A stretch of DNA of 64,000 nucleotides from NCBI GenBank assembly GCA_015061245.1, contig SUWY01000010.1, positions 1,301-65,300 of the forward strand, in the 5' to 3' direction. A program made the position numbers and the translations under genes. The DNA is from Bacteroidales bacterium (GTDB lineage Bacteria; Bacteroidota; Bacteroidia; Bacteroidales; Marinifilaceae). This document shows, piece by piece, positions 29,774 to 48,005 of the stretch. Within the stretch, counting starts at the first letter, position 1. Every line of letters begins with the position of its first letter. The notes beneath the pieces were generated by a model. It was not told the origin of the DNA. It was given only the letters and a program-made list of their open reading frames with translations, and made no database searches.

Positions 29774-29808
29774 TAAAAAAAAAGTTGAGCAATTGCTCAA
29801 CTTTTTTA
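29774..29808. terminator. Bidirectional intrinsic terminator between convergent genes
   Basis: An A-run, then the hairpin agttgagc-aatt-gctcaact, then a T-run. Confidence 0.75.
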
Positions 29809-32144: not shown

Positions 32145-33116
32145 GTGCATATGGTTGATATTAAGCAGGTTGCAAAACGAGTGATAGTTGAGGAGGCAAA
32201 TACTATTGCCAACCTGGAACATTTCATTGATGATGATTTTGTTAAAGTAGTGGAACTTATTCTCCATACAAAGGGGCGTGTTGTGGTCTCTGGAGTTGGG
32301 AAAAGTGCAATTGTCGCACAAAAATTGGTGGCAACTCTTAATTCAACGGGAACTCCGGCGCTTTTTATGCATGCTGCCGATGCTGTGCATGGCGATTTAG
32401 GTATGATCTGTCCCGATGATGTTGTAATATGTTTGTCAAATAGTGGAAACACTCCCGAGATAAAATCATTGATACCTTTAATAAAGAATCTCGATAACGA
32501 GAATATTGTTGCTATGGTTAGCAATAGAGAGTCCTATTTGGCAAAAAATGCAGCCTATATCTTGCAGGCTTATGTTGAGCGTGAGGCAGATCCTAATAAC
32601 CTCGCCCCAACAAATTCAACTACTGCGCAGTTGGTAATGGCCGATGCTCTTGCAATTGCGTTGATTGAGTGTCGCCAATTCTCAAGCAACGATTTTGCCA
32701 AATATCATCCTGGAGGCTCTTTGGGTAAGCGCCTTAGAACAAGAGTGTCTGATATTTTTGATAAAGATAATAGACCAATGGTTGCCCCGGAAGATTTGTT
32801 GAGACAGGTCATTGTGGCAATGTCTGCAGGTCGTTTGGGTGCTGTTGCCGTTACAAATGAGAAGAACGAATTGCTTGGAATTGTAACCGATGGTGATTTG
32901 CGTCGTATGTTGGAGAGGCATAGTGATATTGAAACTTTGAAGGCAGGCGATATTATGACCAAAACTCCCAAGTGTATATCTGCCGATGAGTTGGCGTATA
33001 ACGCTTTCAAAGTAATGGAGCAGAATAGCATTACACAGTTGGTTGTAACCAATGAGTGTGGTTGTTACTGTGGAATGATACACTTGCATGATATTCTAAA
33101 AGAGGGAATAGTGTAA
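32145..33116 (+). CDS. kpsF: KpsF/GutQ-family arabinose-5-phosphate isomerase (SIS + tandem CBS)
   Basis: 323 aa. SIS motif VVVSGVGKSAIVAQK; C-terminal CBS pair. Confidence 0.85.
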   Translation: MHMVDIKQVAKRVIVEEANTIANLEHFIDDDFVKVVELILHTKGRVVVSGVGKSAIVAQKLVATLNSTGTPALFMHAADAVHGDLGMICPDDVVICLSNSGNTPEIKSLIPLIKNLDNENIVAMVSNRESYLAKNAAYILQAYVEREADPNNLAPTNSTTAQLVMADALAIALIECRQFSSNDFAKYHPGGSLGKRLRTRVSDIFDKDNRPMVAPEDLLRQVIVAMSAGRLGAVAVTNEKNELLGIVTDGDLRRMLERHSDIETLKAGDIMTKTPKCISADELAYNAFKVMEQNSITQLVVTNECGCYCGMIHLHDILKEGIV

Positions 33117-33121
33117 TTTCA

Positions 33122-35641
33122 TTGAAAAGTCATAGCGGAAATATTGTATTTGGAGTACGATGGCTCTTAATAGTTCTGTTGTCTCTAGTTGTAGGGAGAA
33201 TTAATGCTCAGTCATCGACCCGTATAAGGGGAGTCGTTACAGATTCCGCAACAGGAGAGCCTATACCATTGGTAAATGTATTCTTTCCGGGAACAGATGT
33301 GGGGATAACTACCAACTTTGAAGGAGAGTACTTTCTTGATACCAAAATTGAGGCCTCGCTTATCAAAATTTCTTGTGTAGGTTATAAAACAAAACAAATC
33401 AGGGTTGTTAAGGGAAGTTTTAATCAATTGGATGTAAAACTAGTTCCAGATATTCAAGAGTTAGCTACGGTAACTGTTCGTCCGGGCGTAAATCCTGCCT
33501 TTGCTGTTTTGGATAGCATTTCAAAGTATAAGAGGAGAAATAATCCGGATAAGTATGATTATTTCTGCAAAACATATACTCGTATGGAATTGGATGCAAC
33601 CAATATAAATCCCTACTTTAAAAATAAAAGGTTGCAACGCGATTTTGGGTTCATTTTTCAATATATGGATACATCGGCCATTACCGGCAAGCCTTTTTTG
33701 CCTGTGATGATTACCGAAGGAGCTTCCGATTATTATTATCGCAGCTCTCCATTGATGAAGCGTGAGATTGTTACCGGTAGTAAAATTTCAGGGGTGAAAA
33801 CAGACTATACTTTTGCTCAGTTTACCGGACAACTTCATCAGAAGGCCAATTTCTATGACAACTTTTTGGATCTCTTTGAGGTGAGATTTGTCAGCCCGCT
33901 GTGTGAAACAGGTAAAATGTATTACGACTATTTTTTGGTGGATAGTGTAAAGCGAGAAGGAAGAAAGGTCTATACAATGCGTTTCCATCCGAAGAGTTAT
34001 TCTGTTCCAACTATGGATGGCGAATTAAAAATTGATTCCACTACATGGGCATTGGTCTCTGCAACGGCCTCTTTGGGTAAAAAGGTTAATGTGAATTGGC
34101 TGAGACATTTGGTTTTGAGAGCAGAGTATGATTTACTTGAAGAGCATAATGTTTGGTTTCCTAAACGTGACGAGATGTTTGCTGATTTCTCTATTTTCCA
34201 GAGTGATTCATCGAAATTGATATCGTTCCTTGGACGTAGGCATATTGACTACATGGAACCAAAATTGAATCCTGAATTTCCCAAAGAGATTCTAAAGCTT
34301 GACAATGATGTGACAATGCCCAAAGATGTGCTGGATAGGGATTCGCTCTTTTGGGATTCGGTGCGCCCATATCAATTAAGTAAACGTGAGGAGGATATAT
34401 TTTTAATGGTTGATTCTGTAAAGAGTGTGCCATTATATCACTCTATTGAAACGGTATTGGAGACTGCTTTCTTTGGTTATTTCGAGACAAAGTATTTAGG
34501 ATTTGGTCCATATTACAAGTTGTTCAGCTATAATGGAGTTGAGGGGGCGAGGTTTCAATTGGGATTGCGTACCACAGAGGATTTCAGTAAAAAAGTTAGG
34601 CTCTCAGTATATGGAGCTTATGGAACGAAAGATAATAAATGGAAAGGCGGTGGTGATATTCTTTATCAATTTAATACTCAGCCATTTTCTCAGCTTAGAT
34701 TTAGCTATAAAAATGATGTTGATCAGATAGGTGCGGGTTTTAATGCTTTGACTGAGAGCAATATTTTGAGCACAGCACTATCGCGTGGGGATAACGATAA
34801 GTTGACCCCTGTAGAGCATGTTGCATTGGAGTATGAGAAAGAGTGGAAAGAGGGGTTTGATAACACCTTTGGAGTTTCGTATTCTCGAGTTAAACCAACT
34901 CACAAGGTGCCTTTTATTACCCCAGCGGGAGACTCCTTGAGTTGTGTCAGCACATTGGCTTTTGCATTAAAAACACGTTTGGCGTGGAATGAGATATGGA
35001 TTCGTTCTGATTTTTCAAGAACAACTCTTTCTTGTCCATATCCGCGAGTCGGTTTGGATTTAACTTACGGAGTTAAGGGGACTTTTAAAAATGATTTCAA
35101 CTATCTAAAGAGTGTTTTGTGGTCGCAATATGATTTCTATATAGCTCCTTTGGGTTATTCAGATCTCTACTTAAGCGTGGGTAAGATATGGGGAAAAGTT
35201 CCCTATCCTTTATTGAAGATTCACGAGGGTAATGGAACATATTTCTATGACAAGTATGCATTTTCGTGTATGAATTACTATGAGTTTGCATCAGATGTCT
35301 GGGCAACCTTAATGTGGGAACACCATTTTCGTGGTTTCTTTTTGGGGAAGATTCCTTTGTTGAAAAAGTTAAAATGGCGTGAGGTTGTTACATATAAGGT
35401 TTTGTGGGGCACTCTCTCAAACAAAAACAATGGTGCCGGCCCGAATTCCGAGGCAGTGTTGCTATTTCCTGCAGGAATGTCTAAGGTGGGTAAACCGTAT
35501 ATGGAGTTTGGTGTTGGTATTGAGAATATCTTCAGGATATTTAGAGTAGATGCGGTGTGGCGTTTAACTCATCGAGAACAGGTTCAGGGAATTAAACATC
35601 AGAATTTTGCTCTCAATGTTTCGGTACATCTAAGTTTTTAG
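33122..35641 (+). CDS. Large secreted/outer-membrane protein with N-terminal carboxypeptidase-regulatory-like domain (DUF5686-like)
   Basis: 839 aa. Signal peptide, then [38 protein letters not shown] (CarboxypepD_reg signature). Apparent TTG start; no in-frame ATG precedes the signal peptide. Confidence 0.6.
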
Positions 35642-35655
35642 TTACCTTTGCACTC

Positions 35656-36390
35656 ATGAAATTAAGAGCAGAAGAGTTAGTTAAGAAATATAAGAGTCGT
35701 ACAGTTGTTCGCGGTGTCTCTTTTGAGGTTGAACAGGGCGAGATTGTAGGATTGTTGGGTCCAAACGGAGCAGGAAAGACCACTTCGTTCTATATGATTG
35801 TGGGCTTGATTATCCCTAATGGGGGTAGGGTTTTCTTGGATGAGCGTGAGATAACCAAGGAGCCTATGTACAGACGAGCTCAACTTGGAGTTGGATATTT
35901 GGCTCAGGAGGCATCGGTGTTCCGCCGTTTGAGTGTCGAGGATAACATTAAGGCTGTCCTTGAGATGAGTGATATGAGTAAGGAGGAGCAGGCGGAGCGA
36001 TTGGAGGAGATGCTTGATGAGTTTGGTTTGCAGCATATCCGTAAGAGCCTGGGAATTCAGTTGTCAGGAGGTGAGCGTAGAAGAACCGAGATTGCTCGTG
36101 CACTATCTATTCGTCCTAAATTTATTCTTCTAGACGAACCATTTGCGGGCGTCGATCCAATTGCCGTTGAGGATATCCAGAGTATTGTTAGAAAATTAAA
36201 GGATAAGAATATCGGTATTCTTATTACAGACCATAATGTTCAGGAGACTCTTTCAATCACTGATCGTGCATATCTGCTATATGATGGAAAGATTTTGCAG
36301 GCAGGAACTGCAGAAGATTTGGCAGCTGATCCGGAGGTGCGTAGAGTATATCTTGGTAAGAATTTTGAGTTACGCAGAAAGAGTGATTGA
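35656..36390 (+). CDS. lptB: LPS export ABC transporter ATP-binding protein LptB
   Basis: 244 aa. Walker [10 protein letters not shown], signature LSGGERRR, Walker B ILLDEP, LptB-type C-terminus [10 protein letters not shown]. Confidence 0.9.
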
Positions 36391-36394
36391 ATAG

Positions 36395-38131
36395 ATGAGT
36401 AATGTTATAGTTGTGAAAGGTGGTAGATGTGTACGGATTTTAGTGGTAAGTGCTCTATTGATAGCACTTGCTGCTTTTTTTGTTGGTTGTAGTAAAGAAA
36501 ATAGACGACCTAAAACGGTACCATCAACTCCAATCGTAATTGATTTCCAGGCACTATTTACAAAATCGGTGCAAGCTATAATGGAGACTCGATATACCGA
36601 TGCTGTAAGACTCTTCGACGCAGCAGAAAATCATGCTGTTAATTTGCCGCCAAGAGCAAAAGCTGCCTATTTGATTCAAAGAGCGCAGGCAGAAGCAATG
36701 CTTTTTCGTGGTCATGAAGCTAATAAACATTTGACAGAGGCTGATTCAATCACCCGAAGATATGGACTTGACTCTTTGCGTTGTCTGATGTATAATGCCT
36801 ATGGTATTATGGCTCAAAATACCGAATCAGATAGATATGCAGCGCTGGAGTACTATATACAAGGAATAAATTTGGCAAGGGCTGTAGGATATGACTATAT
36901 GAGAGCCATATTATCGACAAATGCGGCATGGCTCTTTTTGTTGGATCGTGATATGAGTGGTTTAGTCTATGCCGAGTGGTGTTATAATTATGCGTTAGAG
37001 AATAAAATTGATAATGCAATATATTGTGGAGCTCTTACTACTGCTCAATTCTATACACTGCAGAATAGATTAGATGAGTCTGAAGAACTGTTGAATGTTG
37101 CCAAGGAGGCTGCAGAGAGGTGTGCTGTGGCAGATTTGACAGAGCTATACATGGCTTATGGAGATTGTTATGCTGCGATGGGTGAAGATGAATTGGCCCA
37201 TGAAAATTTTAATAAAGCAATATCATACAGTCATGTAGCAATGGTTGATTATACATTCTTTGCCTATGTTCACTATGCAGATTATCTATTAACAAGTAGC
37301 AGGTATACCGATGCCATTACAAATATGAGTAGAGGTTTAGAGTATGTCATGCACCACCATCTTCAGGTAGAGCGCCCGCGAGCATATAATATAATGGCGT
37401 CGGCTTATGACAAACTAGGTCGAAGCGATAGTGCCTCATACTACCGCAATCGTTCATCTTTAGAGAGTGAATCTCTTCACAGACGTGATTTAAGTAACGT
37501 TAAGAAGAATCTGATTACAAAATATGAGCATGAACATAGGTTGGAAATTGCAGAGATGGAGTTGAAAACCATGCGAGAGCGCTTGTGGCTCTATATCACA
37601 ATATTTGTTTTGATGTTTGTCGCTTTGTTTGTATCAATTATTTCTAGAAATAGAAAGGTAAGATTGTATAAGCAGTTGGTTGCTCGTGAGGTTGAGTGGA
37701 ATAAAGAGAAGAGCAGATTAGAGCAAAGGGAGGTTGTATCCTCTGCAAATGAGGAGATTGCTGAGGGTAAGGTAAGTGATAATGATAAACTGCTATTTGA
37801 CAAAATTGATAAAAAGATGAGGGTTGAGAAGTTATATAAAGATCCCTATTTAGGACGTGATAAATTAGCAGAACTTCTTCAAACCAACAGAACTTATATA
37901 TCGAAGGCTATTAATAGCGTAAGGGGAGAATCAGTCTCAAAATATATAGCAATGTATAGATTGGAGGCAGCAAGTAAAGCGTTATCTGATGTTGATGATA
38001 ATACCCCTATTAAAGATATTGCTGCAGAGTTAGGATTTACATCGTTAAGTACATTTTACTCTTTATTTAAGGAGAGGTATGAAATGTCTCCCGATAAGTT
38101 TCGTAAATATGCACGTGAGCATGAAGAGTAG
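36395..38131 (+). CDS. Membrane-anchored one-component regulator: N-terminal signal/lipobox, TPR-like extracytoplasmic region, one TM helix, coiled coil, C-terminal AraC-type HTH
   Basis: 578 aa. ALAAFFVGCSKEN near the N-terminus. TM segment LWLYITIFVLMFVALFVSIIS at about aa 395-415. The C-terminal roughly 100 aa fit the AraC/XylS HTH pattern (LAELLQTNRTYISKAI...IKDIAAELGFTSLSTFYSLFKERYEMSPDKFR). Confidence 0.75.
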   Translation: MSNVIVVKGGRCVRILVVSALLIALAAFFVGCSKENRRPKTVPSTPIVIDFQALFTKSVQAIMETRYTDAVRLFDAAENHAVNLPPRAKAAYLIQRAQAEAMLFRGHEANKHLTEADSITRRYGLDSLRCLMYNAYGIMAQNTESDRYAALEYYIQGINLARAVGYDYMRAILSTNAAWLFLLDRDMSGLVYAEWCYNYALENKIDNAIYCGALTTAQFYTLQNRLDESEELLNVAKEAAERCAVADLTELYMAYGDCYAAMGEDELAHENFNKAISYSHVAMVDYTFFAYVHYADYLLTSSRYTDAITNMSRGLEYVMHHHLQVERPRAYNIMASAYDKLGRSDSASYYRNRSSLESESLHRRDLSNVKKNLITKYEHEHRLEIAEMELKTMRERLWLYITIFVLMFVALFVSIISRNRKVRLYKQLVAREVEWNKEKSRLEQREVVSSANEEIAEGKVSDNDKLLFDKIDKKMRVEKLYKDPYLGRDKLAELLQTNRTYISKAINSVRGESVSKYIAMYRLEAASKALSDVDDNTPIKDIAAELGFTSLSTFYSLFKERYEMSPDKFRKYAREHEE

Positions 38132-38142
38132 TGTATGATTCT

Positions 38143-38199
38143 TATTTTGGCAATTGGCAAATTAGGAGTTGACATAGAGATCTTTTTTATCTTACTTTG
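38143..38199 (+). promoter_or_regulatory. Promoter with conserved 22-nt upstream box TATTTTGGCAATTGGCAAATTA, -33 TTG (38169-38171) and -7 TTACTTTG (38192-38199)
   Basis: One of three copies with identical internal spacing (see findings). Confidence 0.6.
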
Positions 38200-38225
38200 C
38201 TCAAAATTTAAAACTTGTAGATGAT

Positions 38226-39377
38226 ATGTTTAAAAAGAGCACATTTTGGATAGTGGGAGTTATATTTGCGTTATGCGCATGTAGCACTACACAAAAATCT
38301 TATACATTAACAGGTACTGTTAATGGAGTTGTTGATGGTACAATAGTAGAGATTATTCCTACAGCTACACATCAAGATGAAAAACCAATTGCTATAGTTG
38401 AGATAAATGGAGGGAAGTTTATTGCAACCGGTAGTGTAGAGTTTCCTATAGCTTGTCTATTGCATATAGGTGAGAATGGTTATCATACATTTATGCTTGA
38501 GAACTCAGACATTATTGCTGATGTTAAACTTAGTGATGATGGTTATGTAAGCTCTGCTGATATTCAGGGCTCTCAGAGTAATGATGTTTTTGAGAAAAAA
38601 ATGGCTTTCCGTGATACTTTAAATGATATGCATGCAAAGTATCATGAGGAGTATAGTAAAGCTATAGCTGCAGCAGATGCTGAACCAAATAAGGAAAAGG
38701 CTGCCAAGATGAAGCAGGAGGCTTATCAGGTTATGGCAAAGGCTGAAGGCGATTTCTTTGATAATGTTGAGGTTGTGATGATGCGTAACTTCCGTGCTAA
38801 TGGTGATGATTTTTGGGGACCTCTTTTGGTACTTCATAATATGAACTATTTTACTGAGGGAGATACAACATTTATTAATCTTTATAACTCATTCTCAGAT
38901 AAAGCAAAAGAGAGTTATTATGGTCAAGCATTGAAGAGAGAGTTGTTCCCTCCAACTTTAGTTGGCAAACAGGTTCCTGAAATGACCGGAATAGACAAAA
39001 ATGGTGTAGAACAATCATTAAAGGAGCTATGCAAGGGTAAGAAATATGTTGTAATCGACTTTTGGGCAAGTTGGTGCGGTCCTTGTAGAAAATCTATTCC
39101 TGCTTTGAAAGAGTTCTATGCAAAATATGCACCCAAAGGAGTTGAGATTATAGGAATCTCTATAGATAAGCGCGAGGCAGATTGGAAAAAAGCTTTGGAG
39201 CAAGAGCAGTTGCCTTGGCCAAATATCTTGGATAATCAAAGTGTGAATTCATCACTATTCCTTGTTCGTGCAGTTCCAACCATGTATGTGGTTGATGAGA
39301 ATGGCATTGTTCAGAGTAAGGACTTCTATGATGCAGATGAACGAGCTAAATGGTGTGAGATTTTTGACAAATTGTAA
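38226..39377 (+). CDS. TlpA/AhpC-TSA-family thiol:disulfide oxidoreductase lipoprotein with DUF4369-like N-domain (paralog 1)
   Basis: 383 aa. Lipobox FALCAC; thioredoxin active site WASWCGPC. Confidence 0.85.
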   Translation: MFKKSTFWIVGVIFALCACSTTQKSYTLTGTVNGVVDGTIVEIIPTATHQDEKPIAIVEINGGKFIATGSVEFPIACLLHIGENGYHTFMLENSDIIADVKLSDDGYVSSADIQGSQSNDVFEKKMAFRDTLNDMHAKYHEEYSKAIAAADAEPNKEKAAKMKQEAYQVMAKAEGDFFDNVEVVMMRNFRANGDDFWGPLLVLHNMNYFTEGDTTFINLYNSFSDKAKESYYGQALKRELFPPTLVGKQVPEMTGIDKNGVEQSLKELCKGKKYVVIDFWASWCGPCRKSIPALKEFYAKYAPKGVEIIGISIDKREADWKKALEQEQLPWPNILDNQSVNSSLFLVRAVPTMYVVDENGIVQSKDFYDADERAKWCEIFDKL

Positions 39378-39418
39378 GAGTTGTTTTCTATTATAGTTTT
39401 ATTCGTTAGTATTTGAGT

Positions 39419-39457
39419 CGTGGGGAGCGTCGTGAGATGTCTCCCCACGTTTTGTAT
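39419..39457 (+). terminator. Intrinsic terminator after TlpA paralog 1
   Basis: Hairpin cgtggggag-N13-ctccccacg followed by ttttgtatt. Confidence 0.6.
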
Positions 39458-39490
39458 TACCTGAGTTTCAGTGAATTAATGTGAGAGTGT

Positions 39491-39547
39491 TATTTTGACA
39501 ATTGGCAAATTACTAATTGTGAATATAGTCTCTTTAAGTTTACTTTG
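39491..39547 (+). promoter_or_regulatory. Promoter with conserved 22-nt box TATTTTGACAATTGGCAAATTA, -33 TTG (39517-39519) and -7 TTACTTTG (39540-39547)
   Basis: Second copy, with the same spacing as at 38143. Confidence 0.6.
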
Positions 39548-39574
39548 CGATGTTATAAAATTTAAAATTATAGA

Positions 39575-40726
39575 ATGAAACAGAGAATGGTAATATGGGC
39601 AATTGGCCTATTGTTGGTATTTGGTTCATGTGGAACTAATTCCAAATCCTACGTGCTGAGTGGAGAAATTAGTGGAGTTAAGGATGGGGCAATTATAGAG
39701 ATAATTCCATCGGCAACACATAAGAGTGAAAATCCAATTGCGGTAGATACCGTTAAGAATGGGGCATTTGAAATTATAGGGGCGGTTGATCAGCCAACGG
39801 CTTGTATTGTTCGAGTGAATGATAAGGGATATTATCGTTTTATGCTTGAAAATGCGAATATCACAATGAATATAGCGGTTGGCGAGAACGGAAATTATGA
39901 AACCGTAGAGGTGTTAGGCTCTCCATATACCGATATATATAAACAGAAGATGTACTTTAGAGACTCAATGGATGCCCTTCGAGATAAATATATAGAAAAA
40001 TATTATCAAGAGGTGGCTAAGGCCGATGCTGAGCCGGACAAAACAAAAGCAGAAGAGATAAGAAAAGCTGCCTATGATGCGAGAAATGAGGCAGACTCAA
40101 AGTTTATTGAGGAGTTTAATAGAGTTGCGTACAAAAACTATGAGGCTAATGGCGATGATTTCTGGGGGCCACTTGTAATACTATGTAATAGAGCGTATTT
40201 TCGTCCGGAGGAACCAGAGTTACAGGTGATATACGAGGGTTTTTCTAATAAGGCAAAAGAGAGTTACTATGGACAAATATTAAAAGGGCAACTCTATCCA
40301 CCAACTCTTGTTGGAAATGCACTCCCTGATATGAATGCAATTGATAAGAATGGGGTACAACAATCTTTAAAGGAGTTGTGTAAAGGTAATAAGTATGTTA
40401 TTATCGATTTCTGGGCAAGTTGGTGTGGCCCGTGCAGACGATCAATACCTGCGCTCAAAGAATTTTATGCTAAATATGCTCCCAAAGGAGTTGAGATAAT
40501 TGGTATCTCGATTGATAAGCGTGAGGCTGATTGGCAGAAGGCTTTAGAGCAAGAGCAGTTGCCCTGGCCCAATATTTTGGATGTAGAGTATGTAAACGGA
40601 ACAAAGTTCTACGTTAAATCGATCCCAACTATGTTGGTGGTTGATGAAAATGGAGTAGTTCAAAGTAACAAGTTCTATGACCAAGAGGAGCGTGCAAAAT
40701 GGTGTGAAATATTTGATAAGCTATAA
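39575..40726 (+). CDS. TlpA/AhpC-TSA-family thiol:disulfide oxidoreductase lipoprotein with DUF4369-like N-domain (paralog 2)
   Basis: 383 aa. Lipobox VFGSCG; WASWCGPC. The C-terminal domain is nearly identical in protein sequence to paralog 1. Confidence 0.85.
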   Translation: MKQRMVIWAIGLLLVFGSCGTNSKSYVLSGEISGVKDGAIIEIIPSATHKSENPIAVDTVKNGAFEIIGAVDQPTACIVRVNDKGYYRFMLENANITMNIAVGENGNYETVEVLGSPYTDIYKQKMYFRDSMDALRDKYIEKYYQEVAKADAEPDKTKAEEIRKAAYDARNEADSKFIEEFNRVAYKNYEANGDDFWGPLVILCNRAYFRPEEPELQVIYEGFSNKAKESYYGQILKGQLYPPTLVGNALPDMNAIDKNGVQQSLKELCKGNKYVIIDFWASWCGPCRRSIPALKEFYAKYAPKGVEIIGISIDKREADWQKALEQEQLPWPNILDVEYVNGTKFYVKSIPTMLVVDENGVVQSNKFYDQEERAKWCEIFDKL

Positions 40727-40843
40727 GGTTGTAAAGTATCATACTTAAACATATAGATAATTATTTGGTAATCTTTAAGCATAGAAGAAGGTATTGTTTT
40801 GATTCTAAGATGCAGATTGTTAAGTAATTGTATATGTATCTGC

Positions 40844-40900
40844 TATTTTGGCAATTGACAAATTAAGTATTGTAGGCCTTTTTGAATTATATTTCCTTTG
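40844..40900 (+). promoter_or_regulatory. Promoter with conserved 22-nt box TATTTTGGCAATTGACAAATTA, -33 TTG (40870-40872) and -7 TTCCTTTG (40893-40900)
   Basis: Third copy, in front of the SusC-like operon, with the same spacing. Confidence 0.6.
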
Positions 40901-40931
40901 TGAAAAATTACTTTTTTTAACATAACCAAAA

Positions 40932-43900
40932 ATGAGTACAAAAATGAAAATGCAAAACAGCTGGTTAAAGGTGCCTAAATGTTTAGTTGCACTTTTGACT
41001 ATCATTTCTCTGATGTGCTCCCTAAATTATGGCGTAAGCGCCCAAAGTGGAGTGCGTACAATTACCGGAGTTGTTAAAGATATCCGCGGCGAGGTTATCC
41101 CAGGAGCTTCAGTGATTGTTGTGGTAGAGAAAGATCAACCGATTAGAGGAACTGCAACCGATGAGAATGGTGCATTCAAGTTGTCAGTAACCTCAATGGA
41201 CAAAGCGTTCGAAGTGTCATTCGTTGGAATGGAGACACAGCAGGTTTCAATTACATCTTCAAATGAGTATACTGTAGTTATGGACGAGGACTCACAATTG
41301 TTGAAAGATGTTGTTGTAACGGGAGTTTTTGAGCGTAAGGCAAACAGCTACACCGGAGCTGTAACGACAGTAAGTGCCGAGGATTTGCAATTGGTGGGTA
41401 ACACTAACGTATTGCAGAGTTTGTCTGTTATAGATCCATCGTTCATGATTGTTGAGAATCTATCTGCAGGATCTAACCCAAATGCTCTTCCTGAGATTCA
41501 GATGCGTGGTCAGTCAGGATTTGATAACAATGAGCCTTTGTTTATTCTTGACGGATTTGAGACAACTTTGACAGCGATTATGGATCTTGACATGAATATG
41601 GTAAATAGTGTTACCTTGTTGAAGGATGCTACTGCAAAAGCTATTTATGGTGCTAAGGCTGCTAACGGAGTTGTAGTTGTTGAGACAAAACGTCCAGAGA
41701 AGGGTAAGTTGAGAGTCAGCTATACAGGAAGCGTTGATGTTGAGACACCGGATTTGAGCAGTTACAACTTGACAAATGCTGAGGAGAAGTTGCAGGCAGA
41801 GAAGTTGGCAGGTTTCTATACTTCAGAGAATGCTATGACTCAAATTAGCCTTGATCAGACATATACAAAGATGCTTCAGAAAATTGAGGCTGGTGTAAAT
41901 ACAGACTGGATGGCTCAACCATTGAGAAACGGTGTGGGTCAGAAACACTCAGTATATCTTGATGGAGGTGATGGGGCAACTACATACCAGGCTAACCTTG
42001 CATACAATCAGGTAAATGGAGTTATGGATGAGTCATATCGTAAGACTATCAATGGATCGTTGTCAATTGTTTATCGAACCGATAAGTTTATGTTCAGAAA
42101 TAAACTTAGTGTTGATGATAACAGAACACAGGAGTCACCATACGGAACATTTGCTCAATATACTCTTATGAACCCTTATAATGAGTTGGAGGATGAAAGT
42201 GGTCAGATGCCTGAGATGTACACTGGTATTGTTACTCAATACAACCCATTGCACAATGGTAAGATTGGCTCATACAATAAGACGAACTACACAAGTGTAA
42301 CAAACAATACATATCTGGAGTATCGTCCAATTGAGCCTTTGAGAATTACTGCTCAATTCGGAGTTACCGTTAAAAATTCTGGAGCAGATAACTTCAAGCC
42401 TGCAGCACATACAGACTTCTTGTCATATACAGGAGATAAGCTATATCGTGCAGGTTCATACTACGATATGAACAGAAAGGATAATAGTTGGACAGCACAG
42501 GTTGGTGTTCAGTACTCTTTGACAAAGGATAAACACCTATTCTTCGTAAACGGTCAGGTTAATGCAAGCCAGACTAAATATACATACAGCACAATGAATG
42601 CTGAGGGATTCCCAAATAAGAATCTGTCTCACGTATCTTCTGCTGTTCAGTATGCAGAGAATACAACACCTGGTGGTGGAGAGGGAATCTATCGTGATTT
42701 TGGATTCATCGCATCAGCTAACTACTCATTTGATGAGAAGTATTTGTTCGATGCCAACTTGCGTTTGACCGGTTCTTCTCAGTTTGGAGCAGATAATCGT
42801 TGGGGATTGTTCTGGTCATTGGGAGCAGGATGGAATGTTCACCGCGAGAACTTCTTGAAAGAGTCAACATGGTTGGAGCGTTTGAAGATTCGTTTCTCAA
42901 CAGGTTATACCGGATCACAAGGATTCAACACATACGATGCAATTGCAACTTTGAACTACAACATGGATGCACAATATAATGGAATGTTGGGTTCATACGT
43001 AACACGTTTGGCAAATCCAAGTTTGCAGTGGCAGAAAAAGTATGATACTAACGTAGGAGTTGACTTTTCGGTACTTAATGGTATCGTTTCTGGACGTTTC
43101 GATTGGTATAAGGCAACAACTAAGGGTTTGACTACATCAATTACAACTCCAGGTTCTACAGGATTTGTAAGTTATGTTGATAACCTTGGAGAGTCTGAGA
43201 ATAAGGGATATGAGGCCTATTTGAATGTACGTTTGTGGCAGCAGCCTCGCTCAAGAAGCTTTGTAAGTATCTACTCTTCATTGGCATCTAATACAAATAC
43301 CTTGAAGAAGATTGCCAACTCATTGAAGCAGCAGAATGATATGTCTGATGCAGCAATGAATGATACAAAGAGTGTTAACCTTGCAACTCGTTACGAGGAG
43401 GGACAATCTTTGAATACTATTTGGGCTGTTAAGTCATTAGGTATTGATCCTCAGTCTGGTAGAGAGTTGTATGTAAGACCTGACGGTTCTTTGACATACG
43501 AGTGGAATGCTGCAGATCAAGTGGCATGTGGTATTGATCTTCCAAAGATTTCAGGAAACTTTGGTTTGAATGCAGAGTGCCACGGAGCCGGAATCAATAT
43601 GACATTCACATATAGAACCGGAGGTCAGATGTATAACAGTACATTGGTATCAAAGGTAGAGAATGCAAATGTTCGTTACAATGTTGATAAGCGAGTTTTG
43701 ACCGACCGTTGGAGTAAACCAGGCGATGAGGTTCGTTTCAAATCAATTGCTGACCAGTCAGCAACTCAGCCAACTTCTCGTTTTGTAGAGGATTACACTT
43801 TGGTAAACTTCGCTACAATGAGTGTTTACTACGATTTCCGTGAGTGTAACTTTGTTAAGAACTCATTCTTGCAGAAGTTGAAAGCTACATTCTATGTGAA

Positions 43901-43994
43901 TGATTTGGCTACATGGTCATCAGTTAAGGTTGAGAGAGGTACTGCATATCCATATGCTCACACATACTCATTCTCTCTATCTGCAACATTTTAA
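40932..43994 (+). CDS. SusC/RagA-family TonB-dependent outer-membrane transporter
   Basis: 1020 aa. Signal peptide, CarboxypepD_reg domain (ITGVVKDIRGEVIPGASVIVV), TonB-box/plug (DVVVTGVFERK..., LFILDGFE, LKDATAKAIYGAKAANGVVVVETKRP), and a C-terminal aromatic residue. No STN/anti-sigma signalling domain is visible. Confidence 0.9.
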   Translation: MSTKMKMQNSWLKVPKCLVALLTIISLMCSLNYGVSAQSGVRTITGVVKDIRGEVIPGASVIVVVEKDQPIRGTATDENGAFKLSVTSMDKAFEVSFVGMETQQVSITSSNEYTVVMDEDSQLLKDVVVTGVFERKANSYTGAVTTVSAEDLQLVGNTNVLQSLSVIDPSFMIVENLSAGSNPNALPEIQMRGQSGFDNNEPLFILDGFETTLTAIMDLDMNMVNSVTLLKDATAKAIYGAKAANGVVVVETKRPEKGKLRVSYTGSVDVETPDLSSYNLTNAEEKLQAEKLAGFYTSENAMTQISLDQTYTKMLQKIEAGVNTDWMAQPLRNGVGQKHSVYLDGGDGATTYQANLAYNQVNGVMDESYRKTINGSLSIVYRTDKFMFRNKLSVDDNRTQESPYGTFAQYTLMNPYNELEDESGQMPEMYTGIVTQYNPLHNGKIGSYNKTNYTSVTNNTYLEYRPIEPLRITAQFGVTVKNSGADNFKPAAHTDFLSYTGDKLYRAGSYYDMNRKDNSWTAQVGVQYSLTKDKHLFFVNGQVNASQTKYTYSTMNAEGFPNKNLSHVSSAVQYAENTTPGGGEGIYRDFGFIASANYSFDEKYLFDANLRLTGSSQFGADNRWGLFWSLGAGWNVHRENFLKESTWLERLKIRFSTGYTGSQGFNTYDAIATLNYNMDAQYNGMLGSYVTRLANPSLQWQKKYDTNVGVDFSVLNGIVSGRFDWYKATTKGLTTSITTPGSTGFVSYVDNLGESENKGYEAYLNVRLWQQPRSRSFVSIYSSLASNTNTLKKIANSLKQQNDMSDAAMNDTKSVNLATRYEEGQSLNTIWAVKSLGIDPQSGRELYVRPDGSLTYEWNAADQVACGIDLPKISGNFGLNAECHGAGINMTFTYRTGGQMYNSTLVSKVENANVRYNVDKRVLTDRWSKPGDEVRFKSIADQSATQPTSRFVEDYTLVNFATMSVYYDFRECNFVKNSFLQKLKATFYVNDLATWSSVKVERGTAYPYAHTYSFSLSATF

Positions 43995-44010
43995 TTAAAG
44001 GTTAGTGAAT

Positions 44011-45465
44011 ATGAAGTTAGTTAATAAAATAAGTACTTTAGCTGTTGTAGCACTTGGAACATTTGCTTTAAGTGGTTGCAACGATTGGTTCGATGCTCGT
44101 TCAGAGTCTGAGATCTATGCAGAGGAGCACTTTGCGAACCAGAGCGGATTTGCAGATCAATTGACAGGTGCATACACCTCAATGATCTCTACTTCACTAT
44201 ATGGAATGAATAGTACTTTCGGATTGATGGAGGTGCTTTCACAAAACTATGATATCAATACCTCAAACTCAACATATACAACTGCTGCATCATATGATTA
44301 TGAGGCTGTAGCTGTTAAGAGTATGATTGAGAATATGTGGAATAAGTCATACAATGTTATTGCAAACTTGAATCTTATGTTGCAGTACATTGATAATGGA
44401 ACATATTTTGATCAGGGTAACTACGAGATGTATAAAGGAGCCGCATTAGGTTTGCGTGCATTTTTGCATTTCGATTTGATGCGTCAGTTTGCTCCAATGC
44501 CAAAGAGTGAGCCTAATACGTTGTCTATTCCATACGTTAAGGAGTATACAACTCAGGTAACTCCTCAGTCAACAGTTGCTGAGAATATGGCAAATATCAA
44601 AGCTGATTTGAAGGCTGCAATGGAGTTGTTGCAGGTAGATCCGATTTACACATCAACTGCAGATAGCGCATATTATGTAAGAAGCGATGCTCAGATTCGT
44701 TTTAATTACTATGCAGCATTGGCAACTCTTGCTCGCGTGTACCAGTGGGAGGGCAATATTGATAGTGCAAGAATCTGTGCAGAGCAGGTAATTAATGATG
44801 ATAAGTTCTCATGGGTTCACTATACTTCAGTAACAACATCTCATGCTTATGAGCGTGACGTATTGTTCTCGCCTGAGCATATCTTCCGTTTGTATTACTA
44901 CGATATGGAGAGTGCAGCAAACAACTATTTCCATACCTATTCTGGTCAGGAGAATCCAAATTTGTTGTCTCCAAATGAGGCTAAGATTCTTGATATCTAT
45001 GAGGTAAATACCGCTGCATTAGGAGGAGATTATCGTAATCAATATTGGTATATTTACGATGGTGGAGCTGAGAGATGTCTGGCTAAATTCTGGCAACCGG
45101 AGGGAGGAAGATACCTAAACCAAATGCCTCTAATCAGAAAGAGCGAGATGTACTATATTGCTGCAGAGAGTTATGCTAATAGTGATCCAAACTATGCTGC
45201 AAAATTGTTGAATGAGGTTCGTGCAAACAGAGGTTTGGCAAATGAGACAATTCCTATCTTGGATACTTTGAATGCAACTCCTGAGTATATCAATAATGAG
45301 GTTTACAAAGAGATGCGTAAGGAGTTAATAGGAGAGGGACAGATGTTCTACTACTATAAGAGACATGGATACGAGACAATACCGGGTTCTGCTGTAAGTG
45401 CAGGTCGCGATGTATATGTATTCGATATGCCTGAGAATGAGATAGAGTTTGGTGATCGTAAATAA
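44011..45465 (+). CDS. SusD/RagB-family nutrient-binding outer-membrane lipoprotein
   Basis: Lipobox FALSGCNDW. The position immediately after SusC, the length and TPR-like helical composition fit the family. The ORF track starts at a GTG at 44005; the ATG at 44011 (MKLVNK...) is preferred. Confidence 0.85.
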   Translation: MKLVNKISTLAVVALGTFALSGCNDWFDARSESEIYAEEHFANQSGFADQLTGAYTSMISTSLYGMNSTFGLMEVLSQNYDINTSNSTYTTAASYDYEAVAVKSMIENMWNKSYNVIANLNLMLQYIDNGTYFDQGNYEMYKGAALGLRAFLHFDLMRQFAPMPKSEPNTLSIPYVKEYTTQVTPQSTVAENMANIKADLKAAMELLQVDPIYTSTADSAYYVRSDAQIRFNYYAALATLARVYQWEGNIDSARICAEQVINDDKFSWVHYTSVTTSHAYERDVLFSPEHIFRLYYYDMESAANNYFHTYSGQENPNLLSPNEAKILDIYEVNTAALGGDYRNQYWYIYDGGAERCLAKFWQPEGGRYLNQMPLIRKSEMYYIAAESYANSDPNYAAKLLNEVRANRGLANETIPILDTLNATPEYINNEVYKEMRKELIGEGQMFYYYKRHGYETIPGSAVSAGRDVYVFDMPENEIEFGDRK

Positions 45466-45477
45466 AAAAAGAATATT

Positions 45478-46191
45478 ATGAAACTAAATAAAATTTTGGG
45501 CGCTACAGCTCTTTTATTGGCTCTTTTCTCATGCGAGAATGATCCATATCGTTGGGAGGGTTCTGCGTACGCAAGAATTGTAGGTCCTGAGAATTGGACA
45601 TTGCAGACCGACTCAATGGAGTTTACCTTTGCAAGATATGCAACCGATGTTACAGAGTATGTTGTAAATGCTGAAATTAAGTTAATAGGTATTGCAGCCG
45701 ATTATGATCGCAATGTTGTGTTGAAGGTTGCTGATGAGCAGACTACTGCAGAGAGTGCTATGTACTCTTTTGAGACAAATGTTGTAGTTCCGGCTGGAGA
45801 GGTGGTTGCTCCATGTGACATTACATTAAAGCGTTCTGCGAAGTTGCAGGATTCAACTTATCGTTTGAAGATTGTGGTTACCGATGAGGGTGAAATAACT
45901 TCAGGTGTTGGAGAGTGGAATCAGTTGACAATTATCTTCTCAGATCAGTTGGCTAAACCAACAAACTGGGATGAGTATTTGTCTCAGTTCTTTGGCGAGT
46001 ATAGCGAGGTTAAGTATAGATTTATTATCTCTACAACCGGAGTAACAGAATTTACATACGGTCAAGAGGGTGGTATGACTTGGGGAGAGATGTATAACTT
46101 CTCTGTAACTATGGCGAATGCCTTGGAGGAGTACAACGAAACTCATGCAACTCCTATGACTGATGAGAATGGTAAACTTGTAACCTTCTAA
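45478..46191 (+). CDS. Surface lipoprotein, DUF4843-like (family call by context and size)
   Basis: 237 aa. Lipobox LALFSCEND. Third gene of the SusC/D operon, as in SusCD-DUF4843-PKD-like loci. Confidence 0.55.
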   Translation: MKLNKILGATALLLALFSCENDPYRWEGSAYARIVGPENWTLQTDSMEFTFARYATDVTEYVVNAEIKLIGIAADYDRNVVLKVADEQTTAESAMYSFETNVVVPAGEVVAPCDITLKRSAKLQDSTYRLKIVVTDEGEITSGVGEWNQLTIIFSDQLAKPTNWDEYLSQFFGEYSEVKYRFIISTTGVTEFTYGQEGGMTWGEMYNFSVTMANALEEYNETHATPMTDENGKLVTF

Positions 46192-47783
46192 TGATTATTG
46201 TGATGAATAAGATTTTTAAAGGAATATTATCACTCTCAATGGTTGCAGCTATAATGGTAGCTTGTGATCAGGATGAGGGTAACTATAGTTACGATTACGA
46301 GAACGTAACTAAGATAACTATTGACACAACCGGAGTTGACCGCTCAGAGTTGTGGGGATGGGCAGTTGGCGATACTATCGATTTCTGTCCAAATGTATAC
46401 ACCACAGGCGATACAGCAGACTTGAAGTACTACTACTTTGTTACTGCATCAAATTACCAACCTATTCAGGATGGTAATGCACTGGTATATCCTCCTGCTG
46501 ATACAATCAGTAAGGGTAAAGACCTTCACTACATAGTAGATTTGACCCCTGGAGAGTCATATAGATTATACTTTATGGTCGAGGATACTAAGATTGGAGC
46601 AAAGGCATTTATGATGTTGTCAAGCTGGTTGTCTATCCCAATTAATGGAGAGGTAATTGGAATCTATTGTGCACATCAGAAAGATGGACACTTCGAGATT
46701 GACGTTGTTCGCTCTGATAAAGCTTTGATTCTTGGTTCTGGTCGTGATACTGCTATCTGGTCTAAGAACCACCCAACCGATCTGTTCCAGTCAGTTATTA
46801 TCGACTTTAAGTGGTCATCTGCAGGACACTGGTTCTATATGTTCCTTGAGGATGGAACAGCAAAGCGTATCAATCCAGTAGCGTTGGCATATATGGATGA
46901 GAGCTGGGAGGATATGTTCTATGAGGCTCCTGTTTACAATCCACAGGGTATAGCGACAGCTAATGGATGTGACTTCCTTATCAACGATGGCAAGATGCAT
47001 GTATTGTATAACTCAATAGCTGGAGATAGAAGATTCCCTGCTCCTGTAACAGGTTCTGATAATATTGCACCTTGGTTCAATACCGAGACAATTACAAGCT
47101 GGGGACACTTGGAGGGAGCTATTGATGCATACCAGATTGTTTACGATGCAGATAAAAATGCCTTCAGACCATACTATAATCAGGCAACTTCATTGGCTGG
47201 ATTTGCTCCATCGGTTGCAGATGCTCAGTTCGATGTAAATAACGTTGAGGGTGAGATGCTGTATGGTGCAACATTCAACGGCACCGAGTCTATGTATATA
47301 ATGAAGAATGGCTCTGCTTGTGATTTATATGTTGCATGTTTCAACAATGTTAAGGATGAGGGAAATTTGGCTCGTAAGAAGGTGTCTTTGGCAGGATGCC
47401 CTGGAATTACAGAGGCTAACGGCTTTACATCAACAACAGCCGGTTCTGCATTCTTCTACTCAACAGGAAATAAGGTATATTCATTCTCTTACTCTACAGG
47501 TCAGACTGAGGCTCACCTTTTGTGGGAAGGAGAAGAGGGCGATGAGGCGACTGCTCTATGTTTGTTGAGTGTTGGAGGTTTCCCAACTGCAGGTTCTATC
47601 CTTTGGTTCGGAGTTTGGAATGAGACAACTCAGAAGGGTAAGTTGGTTGAGTTTGAGATTGATCCTGTTGCAGGAACTGCCAGCAATATGTGGGGACCAA
47701 TGTTTGCAGGAACTGAGGAGAATCCTATAATTTACGAGGATTTCGGTAAGATTCAGGCAATTACTGAGTACAATGGTTATTAA
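46191..47783 (+). CDS. Surface lipoprotein, PKD-like/beta-propeller-like family (tentative)
   Basis: 530 aa. Lipobox IMVACDQDE. The start overlaps the previous stop (TAATG); an alternative ATG is at 46203. Confidence 0.5.
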   Translation: MIIVMNKIFKGILSLSMVAAIMVACDQDEGNYSYDYENVTKITIDTTGVDRSELWGWAVGDTIDFCPNVYTTGDTADLKYYYFVTASNYQPIQDGNALVYPPADTISKGKDLHYIVDLTPGESYRLYFMVEDTKIGAKAFMMLSSWLSIPINGEVIGIYCAHQKDGHFEIDVVRSDKALILGSGRDTAIWSKNHPTDLFQSVIIDFKWSSAGHWFYMFLEDGTAKRINPVALAYMDESWEDMFYEAPVYNPQGIATANGCDFLINDGKMHVLYNSIAGDRRFPAPVTGSDNIAPWFNTETITSWGHLEGAIDAYQIVYDADKNAFRPYYNQATSLAGFAPSVADAQFDVNNVEGEMLYGATFNGTESMYIMKNGSACDLYVACFNNVKDEGNLARKKVSLAGCPGITEANGFTSTTAGSAFFYSTGNKVYSFSYSTGQTEAHLLWEGEEGDEATALCLLSVGGFPTAGSILWFGVWNETTQKGKLVEFEIDPVAGTASNMWGPMFAGTEENPIIYEDFGKIQAITEYNGY

Positions 47784-47808: not shown

Positions 47809-47842
47809 GGTGGTAGGACAAAATAGGTCCTACCACTTTTTT
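47809..47842 (+). terminator. Intrinsic terminator of the SusC/D operon
   Basis: Hairpin ggtggtaggac-aaaatag-gtcctaccac followed by tttttt. Confidence 0.7.
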
Positions 47843-47923: not shown

Positions 47924-48005
47924 GCGGGTGTGGTGAAATTGGTAGACACGGTAGACTTAGGATCTACTGCCGCGAGGCTTGGGGGTTCGAGTCCCTTCAC
48001 CCGTA
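47924..48005 (+). tRNA. tRNA-Leu (anticodon TAG), class II with long variable arm; CCA not encoded
   Basis: Hand fold: acceptor gcgggtg/cacccgt (G1-U72 wobble), D-stem gtg/cac, anticodon stem gtaga/tctac with loop cTTAGga, variable arm gcc-gcga-ggc, T-arm ggggg-ttcgagt-ccctt, discriminator A. Confidence 0.9.

Follow-up and report, generated by a model that had tools for sequence, protein, structure and literature searches.

The DNA analyzed here, a 64,000-nucleotide stretch (hereafter, the window) of contig SUWY01000010.1 from a Bacteroidales bacterium of the Marinifilaceae, carries three copies of a 22-nt box, each at the same distance upstream of a predicted promoter and all downstream of a gene coding for a membrane-spanning AraC-type regulator. 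As judged from sequence comparisons, the box is probably the operator of this adjacent regulator, which would activate the three promoters preceding (i) tlpA1, (ii) its paralogue tlpA2, and (iii) the operon susC-susD-DUF4843-PKD.

The box family, represented by the pattern TATTTTGRCAATTGRCAAATTA, was first described in a reading made from the nucleotides alone (the sequence-only reading), and its three copies were recovered as exact matches, against 0.01 matches expected by chance from dinucleotide shuffles of the window; an unbiased repeat search of the window returned the same three-copy family. No further site within three mismatches of TATTTTGRCAATTGRCAAATTA occurs on either strand of the window, in agreement with the earlier description. 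A weight matrix of the box, built from 12 sites and comprising 35.7 bits, gives the three boxes a score of 36, the runner-up in the 64 kb, which is intragenic, a score of 14.5, and all remaining sites scores below 8; weaker matches to the core (16330, 26516, 53341, and others) were rejected as intragenic sites of low weight-matrix score. The coordinates also bear out the identical geometry originally claimed, with the succession of box, 4 nt, TTG, 20 nt, and TT[AC]CTTTG constant in all three promoters. Pairwise identity among the three copies reaches 91-95% in the box, 100% in the TTG, and 88-100% in the -7 box, compared to 30-43% in the 30 nt upstream, 25% in the four nucleotides following the box, 15-40% in the 20-nt spacer, and 31-46% in the 26 nt downstream. 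Flanks and spacers being dissimilar between copies, the conservation is element-specific, as the sequence-only reading had proposed. The start codons follow the -7 boxes after 26, 27, and 31 nt in the three units, the susC start chosen by the gene caller lying 12 nt further downstream. A weak box-like sequence, ATATGGGCAATTGGCCTATT, is also present at 39593-39612, within the part of tlpA2 that codes for the signal peptide, which corresponds to about +41 to +60 in the predicted transcript; its identity to the box is 80% and its weight-matrix score 6.4, and it probably arose by chance.

The predicted transcription starts (Table 1) follow from the differential RNA sequencing of Flavobacterium psychrophilum, in which the sigma-A -7 box TAnnTTTG occupies positions -12 to -5 (PMC9723704). 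Under this rule, the TTG extends from -35 to -33 and the box from -61 to -40, with its center at -50.5. The motif TAnnTTTG is about six-fold enriched in the intergenic DNA of the window, and both the spacing and the TTTG of the box-linked promoters match the Bacteroidota primary-sigma promoter (-33 TTG and -7 TAnnTTTG, separated by about 19-21 bp). Position 2 of the -7 box deviates, with a T in the three box-linked promoters and an A in most other recognizable promoters of the window; such sub-optimal -7 sequences fit promoters that would need an activator. The box-linked -7 sequences are also compatible with the TAnnTTGY variant of F. psychrophilum, and this fit to both motifs makes the sigma assignment uncertain.

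Close relatives of the regulator are restricted to five among 5.8 billion proteins, and the gene order lptB-regulator-tlpA (one or two genes)-susC is kept on the relatives' contigs, including that of L040, which was found by genome scan. The regulators of L040/L079, L080, L081, L082, and L083 are 56-72% identical to that of the window, and identity at four-fold degenerate sites in these lineages has fallen to 34-47%, which amounts to saturation. The box preserves 18-22 of its 22 bases in these five lineages, and the arrangement N4-TTG-N20/21-T[AT]nnTTTG is maintained in all 14 sites. The box is under purifying selection, its bases and spacing being kept despite saturated four-fold sites. L040/L079 and L080 display three boxes each, with 21-22 of 22 bases, and the L081 box retains 20 of 22; the L083 box, TATATTGTCAATTGACAAATTA, contains a core, TTGTCAATTGACAA, that is a perfect palindrome. 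In L082, the most distant relative to have lost the tlpA copy of the box, tlpA begins 38 nt after the regulator gene with no box between them, and the susC box is kept as TAATTTGTCAATTGCCGAATTA, in which two purine positions have switched to pyrimidines. No conserved sequence was found upstream of the boxes in any alignment, and the TTG holds its position in every relative, in line with the original placement of the box immediately upstream of the -33 element.

The symmetry of the box had been described in two ways, as a tandem direct repeat and as an imperfect dyad around CAATTG, and the relatives favor the latter over the former: the palindromic core of L083, the purine-to-pyrimidine changes of L082, and the palindrome of a distant locus, L122, lead us to prefer the dyad. 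The conserved feature thus appears to be not an oriented direct repeat but a dyad, with two tandem palindromic heptamers TTGNCAA around the center CAATTG.

The same comparisons address the origin of the three copies. Duplication of the promoter together with its gene, already considered insufficient in the sequence-only reading, does not explain them, with tlpA paralogues that are old (56% amino-acid identity), unrelated flanks, and a susC copy kept in L082. Locus L076, whose regulator is 98% identical to that of the window, lacks tlpA2, box 2, and its promoter, which indicates that tlpA copy number varies among close relatives. When 39378-40843 is aligned with L076 1480-1860, an unrelated sequence of about 120 nt is seen to separate the tlpA1 terminator from box 3; box-to-box recombination was discarded as the source of the presence or absence of tlpA2, because the end-points of the L076 deletion are not box-to-box.

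In principle, the box might not be bound by a protein at all: it could form a hairpin or terminator, be left over from promoter duplication or gene conversion, or serve in recombination that changes tlpA copy number, as the absence of tlpA2 and box 2 from L076 might suggest. Palindromes with CAATTG can be terminators, and the L122 palindrome folds with a z of -4.2; within the window, AAAAAAGTTGAGCAATTGCTCAACTTTTTT (29778-29807), a perfect palindrome centered on CAATTG between two convergent genes, is a bidirectional intrinsic terminator (dG -20 kcal/mol, z -5.3), so that CAATTG palindromes are not all operators. On the other hand, the three boxes fold inconsistently (z -2.2, -1.25, and +1.4) and no Rfam family overlaps them, the sole match in an Rfam scan of the window being a tRNA (47924-48005), and the terminator or structured-RNA reading of the window boxes was rejected. 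Furthermore, it is the sequence that is conserved and not mere pairing, including at the mismatched purine positions, and the box precedes an unrelated gene and persists over saturated divergence between unrelated flanks. Together with the L076 end-points, these observations render a non-protein role of the box hardly credible.

The regulator gene begins 4 nt beyond the stop codon of lptB. In L079, L081, L083, and L115, the regulator is likewise preceded by a gene matching ABC_tran, the lptB-regulator junction being kept wherever contigs reach. The region 32145-38131 resembles an operon, kdsD-DUF5686-lptB, coding in order for a KdsD-like isomerase, a DUF5686 protein, and LptB, with the regulator gene at its end; this arrangement suggests that the regulator is constitutively co-expressed with lipopolysaccharide (LPS) export genes and may be connected with the cell envelope. 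No box was found upstream of this operon and the regulator is, therefore, not obviously autoregulated. In two relatives, the tlpA1 promoter spacer (L040 3892-3918; L080 2073-2098) contains the inverted repeat GGAGTTG-N4/5-(C)AACTCC followed by a T run (8 in L040, 6 in L080), a terminator-like hairpin that presumably serves the regulator gene and of which the window spacer carries only a weak version.

The regulator comprises (i) an N-terminal hydrophobic segment, either a signal or a lipobox/lipoprotein anchor; (ii) a predicted periplasmic superhelix resembling tetratricopeptide repeats (TPR; residues ~50-362); (iii) a hydrophobic membrane helix, LWLYITIFVLMFVALFVSIIS (residues ~397-417), followed by RNRKVR; and (iv) a complete AraC-type bipartite helix-turn-helix (HTH) domain at the C-terminus (residues ~488-576), predicted to be cytoplasmic. 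This last domain matches HTH_18 (62.4 bits; cut-off 33.6) and HTH_AraC (36.6 bits; cut-off 26.6) over residues 491-571 and aligns nearly over its full length with SoxS (20-104), RamA (45-124), and MarA (28-112); on the basis of its sequence, the regulator belongs to the AraC/XylS family, with the characteristic C-terminal domain of about 100 residues and its two HTH motifs. The AlphaFold2 (AF2) model, with a mean predicted local distance difference test (pLDDT) score of 77, shows a 16-helix superhelix (51-362), one unbroken helix (366-443) spanning the membrane segment, and a seven-helix DNA-binding domain (488-576), a modeled topology that fits a one-component regulator reaching from periplasm to cytoplasm. 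The closest folds to the superhelix are those of LGN/Pins, Rap, and NprR (Foldseek E 1e-6 to 3e-4, 12-15% identity). No histidine kinase, phosphoacceptor, or receiver domain was detected in the 578 residues, either with Pfam or in the AF2 model. Across the subfamily, the C-terminal 110 residues are 82-87% identical, compared to 51-68% for the remaining protein; the DNA-binding domain is the best-conserved part of the regulator, which parallels the near-invariance of the box.

Beyond the subfamily, the family comprises at least 200 representatives of 50%-identity clusters at E <= 1e-30 (HMMER), and among the best 150 nearly all are 520-640 residues long and align over most of their length with 24-33% identity; family members also keep the two recognition helices, TNRTYLSxxIN and GFxSxxTFY. 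The gene contexts of six distant members, 24-33% identical to the window regulator, were examined. The genes of P0010 and P0013 are located directly upstream of susC-susD-DUF4843, that of P0012 upstream of susC-susD-DUF4369/TlpA, that of P0011 upstream of BACON and M43-peptidase genes, and that of P0007 upstream of a gene of unknown function, while that of P0020 diverges from an operon ending in an AhpC/TSA thioredoxin-like gene. In all six cases, a CAATTG-centered element (Table 1) is found in an intergenic region adjoining the regulator gene, a coincidence with a joint chance of about 3e-8 at the pooled genic frequency of CAATTG and of 1e-5 with the background tripled. The elements also appear to be phased: the sole T[ATC]nnTTTG within 90 nt lies 43-44 nt past CAATTG in the seven window-subfamily sites measured and 53-54 nt past it in four of five distant loci (L119, L122, L126, and L128), which places the distant element one helical turn farther from the -7 box, with its center at -60.5 or -61.5 under the F. 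psychrophilum rule. These family-level sites tie the box to this type of regulator independently of the repeats in the window.

Several of the distant loci display additional features. In Bacteroides intestinalis (L119 182-1960, minus strand), a 592-residue protein combines TPR, a transmembrane (TM) segment, and a LuxR/GerE-type HTH; its gene is located about 4 kb from the TPR-TM-AraC gene, next to a 1162-residue gene product resembling rhamnogalacturonan I (RGI) lyases. It shares with the window regulator marginal juxtamembrane similarity only (E 0.015), and a common chassis may have exchanged its output domain. At L129 9825-9912, in the intergenic region between the regulator homologue and rbfA, units resembling AAAACGTAAAAC are arrayed in tandem. 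In addition, L128 585-780, upstream of the P0007 gene, contains a window-type core, TTGACAATTGCCAG, together with several TTGTCAAT / TAATTGTC repeats, and autoregulation may occur in that lineage.

The distribution of the box and of the regulator bears on which protein reads the site. A scan of 185,579 representative genomes, one per species, for exact or near-exact copies of the pattern ATTTTGNCAATTGNCAAATT yielded 78 loci, and the promoter architecture was found in two of them only, one from an uncultured Odoribacter (L040) and one from a Marinifilaceae metagenome-assembled genome (MAG; L076). Unrelated taxa account for the other 76, which are due to chance, lie mostly within genes, and have neither promoter nor regulator, so that a genome-wide regulon was discarded; in L040 and L076, the box with its promoter occurs at this locus only, with no other exact copy in either genome. 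A regulator homologue is present at two of the 109 loci retrieved by DNA pattern scans (again L040 and L076) and at none of the other 107. The Joint Genome Institute (JGI) metagenomes contributed no relative of the regulator by alignment, and the pattern of box plus TTG matched there 31 times, never with a -7 box. The motif recurs at the same promoter position in relatives and is scattered, mostly within genes, in unrelated taxa; of the candidate regulon put forward at the outset, the set of three promoters stands, whereas a wider regulon does not, with no further copies in L040 or L076 and none credible in the window. As far as exact matching and the completeness of the MAGs allow, the regulon appears to be local, comprising tlpA1, tlpA2, and susC-susD-DUF4843-PKD.

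A 22-bp dyad with half-sites of 7-11 bp is a textbook site for a homodimeric HTH protein, more so than for an AraC-type domain, and an unlinked factor, for instance a global regulator or an HTH protein of the classical dimeric kind, might bind the box with the AraC-type gene as a bystander. Against this stand the restriction of the box to genomes that carry the regulator, and there to this locus, and the CAATTG dyads that adjoin distant regulator homologues in different contexts. Moreover, TATTTTGRCAATTGRCAAATTA does not resemble the Bacteroides Crp-like motif, the 22-bp palindrome wwwTATGTTnTAnAACATAwww, and membership in the Crp-like (BT4338) regulon was rejected. An unlinked factor is, in our judgment, very unlikely. 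The HTH domain of open reading frame 36395-38131, proposed as the binder in the sequence-only reading, is strongly supported as the candidate by its co-occurrence with the box, the conservation of the domain, and the CAATTG sites next to its distant homologues.

The proposed mechanism depicts the regulator as a membrane-spanning transducer in a single polypeptide, with a periplasmic TPR sensor, one TM helix, and a cytoplasmic AraC-type domain. A signal sensed in the groove of the TPR superhelix would lead the DNA-binding domain to occupy the dyad box, which is centered about 50.5 bp before the start, with its edge 4 bp from the -33 TTG and on a fixed face of the helix. From there, the bound regulator would aid RNA polymerase with the primary sigma factor at three promoters with sub-optimal -7 boxes, activating tlpA1, tlpA2, and susC-susD-DUF4843-PKD. 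Activation is proposed in preference to repression because of where the site lies, its phasing on the helix, and -7 boxes that are sub-optimal. The same regulator could instead act on the same box as a repressor or dual regulator, holding the promoters off until a periplasmic signal arrives, since the site evidence is silent on direction and some members of the AraC family are repressors or dual regulators; every site has an intact -33 TTG and an intact TTTG in its -7 box, and the promoters might work unaided. Nevertheless, the box stops 4 bp short of the -33 element and leaves the core promoter uncovered, its shift by a whole helical turn in distant relatives is typical of the face-of-helix contacts of activators, and the -7 boxes depart from TAnnTTTG at position 2, unlike most other recognizable promoters of the window. 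Repression is thus rather unlikely.

Several points weigh against activation through the box by this regulator. AraC-type domains usually recognize asymmetric sites of 17-20 bp, alone or repeated. The length of the box (22 bp) and its 4-bp distance to the -33 TTG are compatible with AraC/XylS sites, whereas its dyad symmetry is atypical, and a compact, two-fold symmetric site of 22 bp is not predicted by the AraC fold; besides, purines facing purines leave the window boxes imperfect palindromes. At the family level, L124 has no recognizable -7 box at the phased distance, and the L122 palindrome, as a stable hairpin, could be a terminator. The promoters were assigned by consensus matching alone, and the genome scans catch exact or near-exact copies only, so that degenerate targets could escape, MAG completeness being a further limit. 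Finally, the predicted sites of Bacteroides AraC-type hybrid two-component systems (HTCS) are direct repeats spaced about 21 bp center to center (PMC3878776). An HTCS-like second half-site about 21 bp upstream was considered and rejected, because box 1 starts 11 nt past the regulator stop codon and leaves no room for it.

The genes under the three promoters form separate units (Table 1). The terminator after tlpA1, also present in L040, L080, and L076, insulates tlpA2 as a transcription unit of its own and, together with the terminator after the PKD-like gene, indicates that the boxes head three separate transcription units. The locus contains the adjacent susC/susD pair that marks a polysaccharide utilization locus (PUL), and no glycoside hydrolase domain, the linked carbohydrate-active enzyme (CAZyme) of such loci, was found with Pfam in the operon or its tlpA partners; the substrate of the SusC/SusD locus may not be a glycan. 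A peptide or a disulfide-containing substrate is a speculation based on the TlpA-type reductases, the SusC/SusD proteins without glycoside hydrolases, and the Rap/NprR-like fold of the sensor. The motif TTTTTTAACATAACC occurs in the susC 5' leader (40901-40931), past the -7 box and ahead of the start codon; this leader motif is kept in L040 (6689-6718), L080, and L082 (3275-3300), down to 58% regulator identity, while the promoter spacer is not, and it may be a translation-initiation or regulatory element. The plus strand, which carries nearly all genes of the window, is strongly asymmetric in composition, with G amounting to 24.6% and C to 16.2%.

Table 1. Boxes, predicted promoters, genes, and terminators of the window, and CAATTG-centered elements next to distant regulator homologues
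Feature	Position	Strand	Description
Box family TATTTTGRCAATTGRCAAATTA	38143-38164, 39491-39512, 40844-40865	+	three exact matches
Box 1 TATTTTGGCAATTGGCAAATTA	38143-38164	+	proposed operator, tlpA1 promoter; about -61 to -40
Box 2 TATTTTGACAATTGGCAAATTA	39491-39512	+	proposed operator, tlpA2 promoter
Box 3 TATTTTGGCAATTGACAAATTA	40844-40865	+	proposed operator, susC operon promoter
Predicted tlpA1 core promoter	38169-38199	+	TTG 38169-38171, N20, TTACTTTG 38192-38199; predicted start ~38204
Predicted tlpA2 core promoter	39517-39547	+	TTG 39517-39519, N20, TTACTTTG 39540-39547; predicted start ~39552
Predicted susC core promoter	40870-40900	+	TTG 40870-40872, N20, TTCCTTTG 40893-40900; predicted start ~40905
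Regulator gene	36395-38131	+	578 residues; Pfam HTH_18, HTH_AraC; AF2 model
lptB	35656-36390	+	LPS export ATP-binding cassette (ABC) ATPase; TIGR04406, 375 bits (cut-off 240)
tlpA1	38226-39377	+	DUF4369 + TlpA/ResA-like thiol:disulfide oxidoreductase lipoprotein
Intrinsic terminator after tlpA1	39419-39455	+	G+C-rich hairpin, then TTTTGT; z -3.6
tlpA2	39575-40726	+	tlpA1 paralogue, DUF4369 + TlpA/ResA-like; 56% amino-acid identity
Target operon susC-susD-DUF4843-PKD-like	40932-47783	+	
susC	40932-43994	+	no STN domain; TIGR04056, 587 bits (cut-off 368)
susD	44005-45465	+	SusD-like_3, SusD_RagB
DUF4843 gene	45478-46191	+	
PKD-like gene	46191-47783	+	
Intrinsic terminator closing susC operon	47810-47842	+	z -2.95
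tRNA gene	47924-48005	+	Rfam RF00005, 53 bits; between susC-operon terminator and trigger-factor gene
Distant element L119			CCGACAATTGTCGC
Distant element L122			CAAAAACGGCAATTGCCGTTTTTG; 24-bp perfect palindrome
Distant element L124			ACGGCAATTGACGA
Distant element L126			AAACAGCAATTGTTGAAA
Distant element L128			AAAAAGCAATTGCTGATTTT
Distant element L129			CAATTG site AATCAATTGTTAA; also box-like AAATTTGCAAATTGTCAAATTTG, one base off exact CAATTG

Most understanding of gene control in gut Bacteroidota comes from HTCS, pairs of extracytoplasmic function (ECF) sigma factors and their anti-sigma factors, and SusR, and many susC/susD loci, particularly those without glycoside hydrolases, lack a known regulator and substrate. 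A literature search on DUF4843, DUF4369, TPR with AraC and SusC, and CAATTG with Bacteroides found nothing on the regulator family or the motif. The family may represent a widespread, undescribed Bacteroidales class, in which regulators with a TPR sensor, a TM segment, and an AraC-type domain activate SusC/SusD-DUF4843-PKD-TlpA loci via a CAATTG dyad at about -50.5 or -61, a generalization that we advance tentatively, as a serious possibility that falls short of probable. If it holds, the substrates of such loci may be peptides or disulfide-rich molecules and not glycans, and the recognition of a compact palindrome by an AraC-type domain would be mechanistically unusual. The proposal offers a precise and testable pairing of a sensor-regulator with a DNA site, plus a rule for the whole family (a CAATTG dyad in phase with the -7 box) that could predict targets for hundreds of uncharacterized 'helix-turn-helix domain-containing proteins' in Bacteroides and relatives, help to build inducible promoters, and probe what SusC/SusD-DUF4843-PKD-TlpA loci import.

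Among known systems, MarA, SoxS, Rob, and RamA, as class I/II activators, share with the window regulator an alignable domain, a single site of about 20 bp just upstream of a promoter element, and a site position that varies from promoter to promoter in steps of whole helical turns. A marbox is asymmetric and degenerate, and the protein that reads it is a soluble monomer. The window box, in contrast, is dyad-symmetric and nearly invariant, its promoter is of the Bacteroidota -33/-7 type, and the regulator is probably dimeric, to judge from its membrane tether and long stalk helix. ToxR-like proteins resemble it in the DNA-binding domain tethered to the inner membrane and in a periplasmic signal passed on without phosphorelay. 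The DNA-binding domain of ToxR is an N-terminal, cytoplasmic winged helix; the topology is thus opposite, and the DNA-binding fold, the sensor fold, and the phylum differ as well. The RRNPP proteins Rap and NprR, and LGN/Pins, display a comparable TPR superhelix of about 330-360 residues but are cytoplasmic and 12-15% identical, a likeness that TPR superhelices may show in general and from which a peptide ligand does not follow.

The systems closest in logic are those of the Bacteroides. SusR (BT3705) and its paralogues each cross the inner membrane as a single polypeptide, with the sensor in the periplasm and a C-terminal HTH in the cytoplasm, and activate the neighboring susC/susD operon from sites upstream of more than one promoter. 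The DNA-binding domain of SusR has been described as unlike known families, and its predicted motifs are direct repeats at a distance of 67 or 77 bp (PMC3878776). The window regulator is predicted to share the periplasmic sensor, the membrane helix, the C-terminal HTH, and the downstream susC/susD. It differs from SusR as described in its AraC-type bipartite HTH, in its compact 22-bp dyad, and in targets that lack a glycoside hydrolase and include thiol:disulfide oxidoreductases, and, given its AraC-type domain, a homology to SusR is unlikely. HTCS likewise are single proteins in which a sensor in the periplasm is joined through a membrane anchor to an AraC-type output, and they control an adjacent susC/susD, whereas the window regulator contains neither kinase nor receiver and senses with a TPR superhelix in place of the beta-propeller/Y_Y_Y or periplasmic-binding fold of HTCS. 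The proposed system overturns no principle and would represent a local regulon of a familiar logical type, akin to control by SusR and HTCS.

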